10,365 nucleotides of DNA from a virus (Duplodnaviria; Heunggongvirae; Uroviricota; Caudoviricetes): positions 1 to 10,365 of IMG/VR virus record IMGVR_UViG_2690316109_000014; one strand, 5' to 3'. Made by a program: the position numbers. Shown here piece by piece: positions 3,001 through 6,000 of the stretch (its first letter is position 1; every line of letters begins with the position of its first letter).

Positions 3001-6000
3001 TAGTCTAAAAACTAGTATTAAGACTATCACTTATTTAAGTGATACTGGTTGTCTGGAGATTCAGGGGGCCAGTCTACTTGCTTTCTTTCTGACTTGTGAA
3101 GAATAACTCGCGTATCATATTTTTATCACCACAGGAAGCTTTTCACTCTCCGAATGCCTGTGGTGTTTTCATATAAACTATCGAAAGTCAATATTATTTC
3201 ATTTAAAATATTTTAACTATCTTTTATAATGAAGTTTCCCTTTGAGGCGTCAAAAATACAATCTTCAGACTTTACAATCATTGATGCTGTTATTGGCTCC
3301 CTACTTAATGGATGATGCCCCCCATCATTAATTATACGAGAGAGAGCATTTTCATCATATAAACTACACACAGAGGATTCCTCGGAGTTTCTAAGAAAAA
3401 CACCACGCTCTGGAATTGCCAATGTAATCGGACACTGCAATGCCTCCGGTATACAGGATATATCCTCAGGAGAAACCGAAAAAGCACTTGAAGATAATCG
3501 AGTCGCTAACGATCCAAGATCGCCCTCATTACCATTCATCATGGTTTGCATTGTTTGTATCATATATCTGTCGAATACATCAAGAAATGAGCTTCCTCCA
3601 TTCAACCGACTCTCAATAACGTCAGCCAGACTGAGAACATCATCCAAAGCAGTATTATTAAGACCTGAATACAGCTCCCCCTGAACAGGATTAACAATAA
3701 AAGCGTCCATAGCACTCTGATAACGAACAGAAAGCTGCCTGTCTCCTATTATAATATTCCCTGTATCATTCGCTCTGGCTGCGTTTTGCAAAACTTCAAC
3801 ATCTTGTATTGACAATTGATTCTCGGACGACAAATAAAATGTAAATGGCATAACAAAACTCCCTGTTTTAATTTGAACTCCAGACTTAAATAGCTGTAAC
3901 ACACTTCTGTATTATATGTCAACACAAAAACCGGAGCCGGACTCCGGTTTTTGTGAAGCTGTCGGCTATTTCATTCCGCCAATATTTTCCCACCTCCCGT
4001 CAGCACGCAGGATTTGCAGCGGTCTTACCACGCACTGTATCTGCTTTTTATCCGCATCCAGTATCACCACCTGCGTGATTACCCTGTCCTGCTCCGGGAT
4101 AATGCCATTCTCATCGGACTCCAGAATGTCTGCCGGTCCCAGTCGCAGCTGTGCTGTAAGTAACTCCCCGTTTTCACGGTCATCATGCTTTCCGCAACCG
4201 CACAGACGCTGCATAAGTTTTTTTAGTACGTTCATGTCATTCTCCTGTTCTGCCTGTATCACTGCCCACTTCATCCAGCCCCTTAACATCCTGCCACGGC
4301 CCGTCACCAAACCTGACCTGCAAATGCTGAAACAGCCCCTGAACCTGTGTGGCATCTTTGGGGTCAAGAAAGGTCAGTCCGGTGATGAGTGCGCCATCTG
4401 TATCCGGGAACCAGCCATGGCTGTTTGTCTCAATAATGTTTCCCGGCCCCAGACGGAACCGTATTTGCGTCTCCCCCGGGTCGCCCTTCGGCCCCTGAGG
4501 TCCGGTTGCCCCTACCGGGCCAGCCACACCTGTTTCTCCTTTCGGTCCCTGTGGGCCTGCCGGGCCTGCCGCACCGGTATCTCCCTTTGGACCCTGTGGA
4601 CCTGCATTTCCCGTCAGACCGGTCTCTCCCCGCTCTCCCATGTCACCTTTCGGCCCCTGCGGGCCTGCCGGACCAGCATCACCTGCCGGTCCCCGTTCGC
4701 CGGTTGCCCCGACAGGGCCGGTGTCACCGCGCTCTCCCTTATCACCCTTCGGCCCCTGAGGACCCGCGGGCCCCTGTTCCCCCTTTGGCCCGGGAGGTCC
4801 CACCACGGTGGGGATTCGGTTTACGGCCTCTTCCGCCGCTATCCTGCTTTGTTCCGCTGACTGTGCGCTTTCTGCTGACTCCCGGGCTTTTTCTGTTGCG
4901 GTCGTTGCATCCCTGGCTGCATTACCGGCTGCACTTTCTGCCGTCTTTCTTGACAATTCAGCTTCTGCTGCACTTTGTGATGACTCACTGGCTTTTTGAG
5001 CGGCCGCAGAAGCCGAGGACGAGGACGCATCCTCTGACTGCTTTGCTGAGGCTGCACTTTCTGCCGCCTGCCGGGCTGACTCCGATGCCTCCCCTGCTGA
5101 AGTGTCAGCATTTGCCGCGCTCTCTTCTGCCTGACTGGCTGATATGCCGGCATTCCTCGCTGACGTCTCCGCCTCTCCGGCATTCTTCTTCGCCTCCTCA
5201 GCGTGACGCGCCACCTCTTCCACCATCAGTTCAAAACGGCGCAGTGCCTCCGGCCGGACGTCATCCTCCGACATGGCTCCGAGAAAATCATTCAGCGTAC
5301 CGGGTCGGGAATCTTCATACACGGTGATGGTCCCAGCATGTGACGGCGGGAATCCTTCCACCAACAGAATAACGCTGTACTGACCGTACTCAACGTCCAT
5401 GCTGTAACGCCCGGCTTCATCCGGATTTTCTGAGGCCAGCGTGTTCACCACCACCGTGGTGCTGTTACGTTTTGCTTTCAGCTGGATTGTGCAGTTCTGT
5501 ACCGGTTTTCCTGTGCCGTCTTTCAGTACACCTGAAATCTTTACTGCCATATTCACCCCACAAAAAAGCCCGCCTGAACCGGCGGGCTGTCATAACACTG
5601 TGTTACCTGGCTAATCAGAATTTATAACCGACACCCACGATGAAACCGTCAGTGCGCCAGTCACCACTGCCGGAGCCTTCATAAGCAATATCAATGGCCA
5701 CGGATTCGGTCGGGTTAAACTGCACGCCAGCCCCCCACGCCAGAGACGTGTTGCTGTGGCGACCGTCATCACTTCCGGTCAGCACATCGTGCTTTTTCCC
5801 CTTGTTGTCAGTTACGCGAAGATAATCCCCGGAGAAAGTCGACACACGGCTGTAAGCTACACCCGCCATCGCATACGCGCTGAACCATTCATTTACGCGC
5901 ACAGACGGCCCCGCCATTACGCTGAACCAGCGGTTACGAACGGAATCTTCATGCCAGCGGGTATCGCTGTAACGGGTCAGCTGGCGATTCTTGTCTCCTG

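Follow-up and report, generated by a model that had tools for sequence, protein, structure and literature searches.

What kind of protein joins the N-terminus of the bacteriophage lambda side tail fibre (Stf) to a collagen-like tract and a distinct tip, and can the length of that tract change? The question is raised by one gene, here called stf, in a 10,365-nucleotide (nt) stretch of DNA from a tailed bacteriophage of the Caudoviricetes (IMG/VR record IMGVR_UViG_2690316109_000014, positions 1 to 10,365; the whole stretch is referred to as the window). A first-pass annotation had described a mosaic side tail fibre, and its main points are correct and agree with the published EPclA family (Ghosh et al. 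2012, PLoS One 7:e37872, PMC3368898). We conclude, with a probability of roughly 0.9, that stf encodes the side tail fibre of a lambdoid Escherichia coli prophage and is of the collagen-shafted EPclA type. The window gene is a new allele of a known EPclA gene, and its family has already been characterised.

This assignment is carried by a comparison with the EPclA protein ECs2717 from prophage Sp14 of strain Sakai. The two proteins are identical at 416 of 437 positions (95%) in a gap-free alignment and at 108 of the 111 positions of the collagen (Col) domain. Seven of the 21 substitutions fall in the C-terminal PfC domain, and three are at collagen X or Y positions. The domain order PfN-PCoil-Col-PfC, the total length of 437 residues and the 111-residue Col domain are all those published for EPclA. 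The published table gives PCoil 116 residues, as against the approximately 117 that can be read off here between the end of the Pfam PfN match (residue 133) and the start of Col (residue 251). The sequence features that mark an EPclA protein are all found: a PF08400 PfN domain, an Ala/Ser/Glu-rich PCoil with heptad periodicity that aligns without gaps to the corresponding segment of ECs2717, a single uninterrupted (Gly-X-Y)n domain, a PF06820 domain at the C-terminus, and more than 90% identity to O157:H7 copies (95% to ECs2717, and 96-98% to fibres of phages that convert for Shiga toxin (Stx) 1a or 2c). The protein has the Pfam architecture PF08400 + PF01391 + PF06820 and matches PHROG tail fibre families (best E 1e-147).

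The open reading frame (ORF) located by the first-pass annotation is present and lies on the minus strand, which had been left unstated. Translation yields 437 residues between an ATG at 5548-5550 and a stop codon at 4237-4239. The ATG at 5550 is taken as the start, and not the GTG two codons upstream at 5556, because it is preceded by a Shine-Dalgarno-like motif and because the N-terminal residues of the product resemble the start of lambda Stf. The lambda h434 imm21 record annotates a ribosome-binding site at the position equivalent to this motif. Three further open frames overlap the gene (3916-4860, plus strand, 314 residues; 4506-5327, plus strand, 273 residues; 4839-5183, minus strand in another frame, 114 residues), and a Pfam search of these three returned zero matches. 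Long spurious ORFs on the opposite strand and in other frames had been noted for this tract, and the practical value for annotation is that long ORFs overlapping stf should not be called as genes.

Table 1. Positions of the features discussed, numbered from the first nucleotide of the window.
Feature	Position	Strand	Basis or remark
stf-type side tail fibre gene, EPclA architecture	4237-5550	minus	ORF list and translation, Pfam, PHROG, ECs2717 match
N-terminal collar (anchor) domain, beta-sandwich, residues 1-94	5269-5550	minus	PDB 9e7m/9mgh match, lambda Stf identity
Ala/Ser/Glu-rich heptad-periodic rod (PCoil), residues 101-250	4801-5250	minus	composition, periodicity, published ECs2717 fragment data
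Collagen shaft, 37 unbroken Gly-X-Y triplets, residues 251-361	4468-4800	minus	residue count, Pfam Collagen
17-nt repeat, copy 1, triplets 5-7	4745-4761	minus	repeat search, coordinates checked on the sequence
17-nt repeat, copy 2, triplets 34-36	4484-4500	minus	261 nt (29 triplets) downstream of copy 1
PfC knob (Phage_fiber_C), 76 residues, residues 362-437	4240-4467	minus	Pfam PF06820
89-residue ORF, Cys-rich leader (MNVLKKLMQRLCGCGKH...) and stand-alone Phage_fiber_C	3966-4235	minus	starts 1 nt after the stf stop
Shine-Dalgarno-like GGGGTGA	5554-5560	minus	3 nt 5' of the stf ATG, read directly
Terminator-like GC-rich hairpin, 8-bp stem with 7 GC pairs, T-run tail TTTTTGTGGG	5567-5588	minus	consensus match only
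Ail/Lom	5615-6214	minus	between J and stf
J, 1165 residues	6285-9782	minus	J-specific Pfam domains, including C-terminal receptor-binding domain
137-residue ORF	9843-10256	minus	no family match
NleG-family type III secretion system effector, after the tail-fibre module	3213-3902	minus	Pfam T3SS_NleG E 2e-43, residues 122-227; RefSeq DUF1076
IS2, between the NleG gene and the 257-residue ORF	1757-3030	minus	OrfA 2620-3030; OrfB 1757-2662
257-residue ORF (MKVSSIISQNTGHSLV...), cargo region past IS2	965-1738	minus	no family match
DinI-like protein gene, far end of cargo region	262-510	plus	Pfam DinI E 1e-19

The N-terminal module is the anchor of lambda Stf. The first-pass annotation had matched the first ~110 residues to it, and the match amounts to about 90% identity over residues 1-116, where a tblastn alignment to phage Lambda among phage genomes ends (89.7%). 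Compared in register with lambda orf-401, 7-10 residues in every ten are identical up to residue 110, 6 of 10 at residues 111-120, and 1-6 of 10 thereafter. BLASTP stretches a weaker orf-401 alignment to residue 153 and finds nothing significant past that approximate point. Pfam PF08400 (phage_tail_N) covers residues 1-133 (E 1.1e-68, 229.8 bits against a cut-off of 26.6), and the Ur-lambda Stf collar domain of PDB entries 9e7m and 9mgh (9e7m_Ta) aligns with residues 1-93 (E 6.9e-52). In Ur-lambda, Stf residues 1-94 form a six-stranded beta-sheet with a helix, and 12 such collar domains encircle the boundary between gpM and the last gpV ring; three collar domains are joined to each trimeric coiled coil by linkers about 10 residues long, giving four side fibres per virion (PMC12617516). 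By analogy, the stf collar would dock at the junction of tail tube and tip complex in the present phage. In the late tail operon the gene directly follows J and lom, the order found in lambda. A gp37-like distal domain or receptor-binding tip of the lambda type, together with a downstream gene for the Tfa chaperone, is not found in the window. Because similarity to orf-401 does not continue past about residue 153 and no Tfa gene follows, it is the N-terminal module alone that makes the protein a member of the Stf anchor family.

The segment that follows forms a coiled-coil rod rather than a loose spacer. Over residues 111-250 it consists largely of Ala (43/140, 31%), Ser (25/140, 18%) and Glu (22/140, 16%), and the periodicity of Ala, of Ala plus Ser and of charged residues peaks alike at 3.5 residues, a signal matched in strength by none of 2000 shuffled sequences. 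The heptad register is kept across residues 101-245, and the final residues of the rod (NRIPTVV) form the junction or hinge into the collagen tract. Fragments of ECs2717 have shown by circular dichroism (CD) and by size-exclusion chromatography with multi-angle laser light scattering (SEC-MALLS) that its PCoil forms an alpha-helical trimer with a melting temperature near 50-52 C (PMC3368898). The first-pass annotation had the protein depart completely from lambda Stf into a low-complexity spacer rich in these three residues. The composition is as it described, but a departure in kind is not upheld: lambda Stf itself runs from about residue 102 into a coiled coil rich in Ala, Ser and Thr (PMC12617516), so the change past residue 116 is one of sequence and not of kind.

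Some homologues differ in the length of this rod. Seven relatives (P0002-P0007 and P0092) have a 41-residue PCoil deletion (columns 170-210 of alignment A1), so that Col begins at residue 210 instead of 251, and P0038 has a PCoil deletion of 63 residues. Since 41 is not a multiple of seven, the published rule that differences in PCoil length are multiples of seven has exceptions. A 41-residue deletion would shift the heptad register.

Beyond the hinge, glycine recurs 37 times at an exact period of three residues, which cannot be of chance origin. The first-pass annotation had recognised a perfect collagen tract but counted 36 triplets at 4474-4800; the unbroken tract is one triplet longer and extends 6 nt further. 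It matches the Pfam Collagen family (PF01391, E 4e-18). Its residue preferences reproduce those published for EPclP collagen domains: Pro occupies 18/37 X positions (48.6%, against an EPclP average of 48.1%) and Asp or Glu 13/37 (35%, against 35.6%), with Lys/Arg, Ala, Thr and Gln favoured at Y (PMC3368898). At 0.286 nm per residue, 37 triplets would span about 32 nm when fully extended.

Collagen-like tracts of this kind also occur in bacterial surface proteins, and the protein might be read as an adhesin or virulence factor resembling Scl1/Scl2 or Lcl that travels as prophage cargo and is displayed by the lysogen and is not primarily part of a virion. The gene adjoins effector cargo of a type III secretion system (T3SS), and the lom gene upstream encodes an outer-membrane protein that lysogens express, as lambda lom does. 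The collagen tract also matches the NCBIfam models for Lcl, SclB and SclA weakly. These scores lie well below the equivalog cut-offs (85.6 against 500 bits, 79.3 against 325 and 68 against 400, respectively) and concern the Gly-X-Y tract only. No signal peptide, LPXTG motif, autotransporter module or other surface anchor is present in the sequence, and the N-terminus is the virion collar domain that has been solved on Ur-lambda tails. In addition, the related protein EPclB has been located at the tail ends of phage Sp5 by immuno-electron microscopy and is essential for infectivity (Sp5 study). We regard an adhesin as scarcely credible.

The tip that the first-pass annotation called distinct belongs to a curated family, Pfam PF06820 (Phage_fiber_C; residues 363-426, E 9.7e-35; 119 bits, cut-off 25). 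In ECs2717 this PfC domain trimerises and renucleates the Col triple helix (PMC3368898), and it is presumed to be the distal binding tip. With 7 of the 21 differences from ECs2717 in its 76 residues, PfC is the most densely substituted module, which is suggestive of the divergence expected for a surface that contacts the host.

The assembled state of the protein can be read from the same close relative. Recombinant ECs2717 forms trimers that dissociate on denaturation, has the CD signature of collagen with a cooperative melt at 42 C, and appears after rotary shadowing in the electron microscope as a dumbbell with a hinged stalk; analytical ultracentrifugation and SEC-MALLS were also among the methods used (PMC3368898). 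Whether the tract forms a collagen triple helix had been posed as a check on the first-pass annotation, and these CD and melting data, for a Col domain that is nearly identical to ours, answer it. The window allele, at 95% identity, would likewise be trimeric, its rod a coiled coil and its shaft a collagen triple helix.

These parts suggest how the fibre may work. Three chains would assemble into one fibre, with their collar domains docked where the tip complex adjoins the final ring of the tail tube, in the arrangement of 12 collars and four trimeric fibres described above for Ur-lambda. A short flexible linker would lead into the trimeric coiled coil, an Ala/Ser/Glu-rich rod of about 21 nm, and a hinge would connect this to the 37-triplet collagen triple helix of about 32 nm. 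The PfC knob would trimerise, start triple-helix folding at the C-terminus and sit at the distal tip. There it would presumably make the first reversible contact with a cell-surface receptor, speeding adsorption before J binds its own receptor. The docking geometry on the tail of this phage, receptor binding by PfC and any adaptive value of shaft length are inferred. The domains, identities, periodicity, gene context, length variants and mapped junctions come from the present analysis, and the trimer, triple helix, coiled coil, PfC trimerisation and dumbbell from the published work on ECs2717.

The length of the shaft does vary among relatives. Our comparison covers the best 120 homologous protein clusters listed, none of which is itself 437 residues long. 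Among those tipped by PfC, the longest Gly-X-Y run is 4, 5, 8, 14, 15, 16, 19, 20, 21, 25, 26, 32 or 34-37 triplets, and relatives tipped by a Peptidase_S74 domain have 9-38. The EPclA paper reports 21, 26, 27, 37, 38 and 48 triplets, and paralogues in Sakai with Col domains of 111 and 81 residues (PMC3368898). A range of 4 to 48 triplets corresponds to shafts of about 3-41 nm. Each shorter variant equals the query tract less one in-frame block, and the remainder is almost identical. For example, an 8-triplet class (P0062 and others) is identical at 44/44 residues around a deletion of 29 triplets (residues 263-349), P0046 at 65/65 residues flanking a 22-triplet deletion, and P0077 at 32/32 residues flanking a 33-triplet deletion. 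The commonest deletion removes 18 triplets, and sizes of 5, 12, 16, 17, 21, 23 and 29 also occur, so that single steps range overall from 5 to 33 triplets.

The positions of these deletions point to short repeats. Exact direct repeats in the collagen DNA reach 17 nt at most. The longest, CCTCAGGGGCCGAAGGG on the coding strand (encoding P-Q-G-P-K-G), has two copies 29 triplets apart, precisely the size of the block missing from the 8-triplet class; recombination between the copies gives these database variants. The junction lies within a pair of GP(Q/P)-GPK motifs in 44 of the 65 shorter representatives, and in GPV-GAT or GD(K/M)-GER repeats in others. Junctions that are ambiguous because of microhomology make up 11 of the 16 observed types, compared with 9.5% of the 693 possible single in-frame deletions (binomial ~2e-8, for junctions mapped at the protein level, whose types are not fully independent and whose ancestral tracts may differ slightly from the query). 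We considered a strict higher-order step of 11 triplets (99 nt), which would accommodate lengths of 37, 26, 15 and 4 triplets and the 48 of the published set, and rejected it on the commonest deletion of 18 triplets and the presence of other sizes. Most junctions are united by a repeated motif and not by a fixed step.

The first-pass annotation had called the DNA of the tract repetitive and prone to changes in triplet number, and hence in fibre length, by slipped-strand or recombinational events. The change in length is real, each of the PfC-tipped variants from 4 to 37 triplets differing by one in-frame deletion, and recombination or deletion between short in-frame repeats fits it better than classical slipped-strand phase variation, which is unlikely. 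The repeats themselves are weak and degenerate (families 60-80% identical, in DNA of 70% GC) and do not constitute a simple tandem repeat; no array detected by Tandem Repeats Finder exceeds 2.1 copies (45-nt unit, 82%).

These properties bear on whether the tract could be a contingency locus, in which frequent slipped-strand mispairing would programme length variation or switch the gene on and off. Triplet number does differ widely among otherwise near-identical relatives, Sakai has paralogues with 111- and 81-residue Col domains, and the junctions do sit in repeated motifs. The tract, however, contains no long near-perfect tandem array that would shift the reading frame or promoter spacing: its longest exact repeat is the 17-nt one, and all four Gly codons are used nearly evenly (11/10/9/7). 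All variants are in frame and differ by the large single steps described above, not by a ladder of one-unit slippage, and the 37-triplet form is stable in many genomes, those of Sakai and strain 9234 included. The rare frameshifted forms (such as P0014) are shifted within PfC, outside the repeat. A phase-variable tract is therefore very unlikely. Because the collagen DNA is so weakly repetitive, and because the steps are large, single and always in frame while the 37-triplet form persists across many genomes, we favour occasional repeat-mediated deletion over classical slipped-strand phase variation. The data fit better with a triplet number that changes by occasional deletion between short in-frame repeats such as GPQ-GPK-G, probably with reciprocal duplication as well. 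Recombination among the many paralogous prophage copies in one genome would favour such changes, and fibre length would differ between prophage copies as a result of these occasional in-frame events. Length variation itself is already published; what is added here is the mapping of the variants to single repeat-mediated in-frame deletions.

Short-read mis-assembly of repetitive DNA with 70% GC could in principle have expanded or collapsed the window tract to its present 37 triplets, and the exact 437-residue allele is absent from about 15 billion proteins. The same length is nevertheless present in the finished Sakai genome, without gaps and with only three residues of Col different, and in complete genomes at 97-99% nucleotide identity. 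The frame is intact through to the conserved PfC domain, and the repeats are too degenerate to collapse easily. We give almost no credence to an assembly artefact as the source of the 37-triplet length. Among the length variants, the 15-, 19- and 37-triplet classes are found on contigs of 4-5 Mb.

Directly downstream of stf, an 89-residue ORF carries a second, stand-alone PfC domain (PF06820 at residues 28-89, E 1e-36). It is 35% identical to the PfC of stf and 97% identical to Sakai ECs2716, and its exact sequence occurs on 993 contigs. Fibre genes of this type have the ORF as a conserved neighbour. Annotations vary by record among hypothetical protein, tail fibre assembly chaperone and "alternate tail fiber tip" (H66). 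Its counterpart in Sp5, ORF68, is non-essential, and Mondal et al. suggested that an ORF of this type is a reservoir of tip variation and found no frameshift signal. The frame of the window ORF remains open for a further 44 codons upstream, into the PfC region of stf (ORF 3966-4367, minus strand). Two 494-residue homologues, P0014 and P0021, run on in this frame and end with a second PfC domain. Programmed read-through into the 89-residue ORF was considered for these two and rejected, as the frameshift lies inside PfC and is followed by out-of-frame residues; they look like mutations or sequencing errors.

Two further ideas are conceivable, although we judge them doubtful. Shaft length may be a selected and tunable trait: a few in-frame GPQ-GPK-G-type repeats would serve as break-and-join points, and prophage lineages could move between discrete shafts of about 3 to 40 nm (4 to 48 triplets) to match the thickness of the host O-antigen or capsule. 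Separately, the 89-residue PfC protein may co-assemble with the PfC knob or replace it as an alternative tip.

The gene stands where the lambdoid tail module ends and the T3SS-effector cargo begins. The order J, lom, stf, 89-residue ORF and effectors recurs in O157:H7 strain 9234, Sakai Sp14, E. coli 14EC007 and lambda h434 imm21. The last of these (OM418627.1, 2501-6296) has a 437-residue collagen-shafted Stf that is 95% identical, an 89-residue PfC ORF, nleB and nleC, and it would offer a convenient plaque-forming system for the study of collagen-shafted Stf. Between lom and stf, a terminator-like hairpin would have to be read through for stf to be expressed, for example by Q-antiterminated late transcription. 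The NleG gene occupies the usual effector cargo position of lambdoid prophages. Beyond it, OrfB of the IS2 copy matches the NCBIfam model "IS2 transposase TnpB" with 721 bits. The 257-residue ORF past IS2 has no Pfam, NCBIfam or PDB sequence match; Cif, an identity offered by neighbouring annotations, finds no support in these searches. At the same place, E. coli 14EC007 has a shorter hypothetical protein beside an EspJ-family effector. The 257-residue ORF may encode an uncharacterised T3SS effector.

Genes of this type are common. Of 5426 complete E. coli genomes, 693 carry a match over at least 80% of stf, and near full-length matches occur in 141 phage records, mostly of Stx-converting phages. 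The N-terminal module alone is found in 4721 genomes, with K-12 stfR among them. About eight EPcl-type genes are reported per O157:H7 genome, and some paralogues are frameshifted (Table 2 of PMC3368898). The closest DNA to stf, from E. coli 22-245, is 99.1% identical, and such a relative alongside the absence of the exact allele from the proteins searched fits mosaic, recombining fibre genes.

In another reading, stf is an inert remnant of a cryptic prophage, whose only remaining use is to supply other lambdoid prophages with material for recombination. The IS2 copy lies 1 kb downstream, genomes of enterohaemorrhagic and enteropathogenic E. coli contain numerous defective lambdoid prophages whose tail regions are nearly identical, with up to 16 matching places in a single genome, and some paralogues are frameshifted. 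In the window itself, however, stf, lom, J and the 89-residue ORF are each intact and of full length, and IS2 has inserted in the cargo region, outside the tail genes. We think an inert remnant unlikely, and it would in any case leave the encoded product of stf unchanged.

Several points weigh against the assignment of stf to a functioning side tail fibre. Docking to the tail is argued from homology with lambda, and recombinant PfN by itself is a monomer (PMC3368898). No receptor is known for PfC; according to a 2026 phi24B preprint, BamA is not recognised by related fibres of lambda_2B8, and what such fibres do is listed there among the open questions. Our AlphaFold2 model of PfC, built from the 12-row alignment A1, is poor (predicted local distance difference test 64, predicted template modelling score 0.43; the other four below 50), and the predicted fold gives no functional hint because of this low confidence; the phi24B preprint likewise obtained no AlphaFold model of good confidence for this domain. 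The length variants are database proteins, some of them on short contigs where repeat collapse is possible. The prophage may be defective, given the IS2 in its cargo region, and the window holds only the tail end of it, so this stf copy may not be expressed and assembled.

As a discovery the locus adds little: the protein family was described in print in 2012, together with its domain layout, its triple helix and coiled coil and the variation in collagen length, and a cryo-electron microscopy structure of the anchor now exists. The biological questions that it raises are the target of the PfC knob and the effect of shaft length on the host range of prophages that spread Shiga toxin and effector genes.

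Known systems resemble the window protein to different extents and in different modules. The surface proteins Scl1 and Scl2 of Streptococcus pyogenes, Lcl of Legionella and BclA of Bacillus anthracis share an uninterrupted Gly-X-Y tract, a triple helix formed without hydroxyproline and an adjoining globular trimerisation nucleator. The window protein differs from them in having neither secretion nor anchoring signals, and its flanking domains and genomic context are unrelated to theirs.

Lambda Stf, as carried by Ur-lambda, shares the collar and the start of the rod (residues 1-116, about 90% identical), the locus downstream of J and lom, and an Ala/Ser-rich coiled coil. Its coiled coil, however, has about 290 residues, beyond which come a hinge and an OmpC-binding, gp37-like distal domain, and lambda also has a gene for the Tfa chaperone, whereas the window protein combines a coiled coil of about 145 residues with a collagen helix and a 76-residue PfC domain and is followed by a stand-alone PfC ORF in place of tfa.

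The EPclD-type proteins of Shigella and E. coli (P0073-P0108) share PfN, PCoil and collagen at 80-94% identity over the common part. They carry 9 to 38 triplets, and PfC is replaced by a C-terminal segment of 134 residues, the intramolecular chaperone Peptidase_S74 (PF13884).

The EPclB or gp61 fibres of short-tailed Stx phages (933W L0121, Sp5 ORF67, which is ECs1228, and phi24B gp61) resemble the window protein at the opposite end. The collagen shaft and PfC knob are close relatives, residues 249-437 of the window protein being about 94% identical to those of VT2-Sakai and other Stx2 phages. Both types of fibre begin with a beta-sandwich that leads into a coiled coil, and an 89-residue PfC-only ORF follows the gene in each case. 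EPclB is longer (645 residues), with two collagen domains parted by a Pf2 repeat, and its fibres belong to a podovirus tail, on which six per virion dock to the adaptor gp62.

EPclA of Sakai Sp14 agrees with the window in gene position as well as in the protein itself: J, lom, the fibre gene and an 89-residue PfC-only ORF (97% identical) are followed by effector cargo. The downstream cargo differs, with an NleG-family effector, IS2 and the 257-residue ORF in the window as opposed to TccP and EspJ in Sp14.

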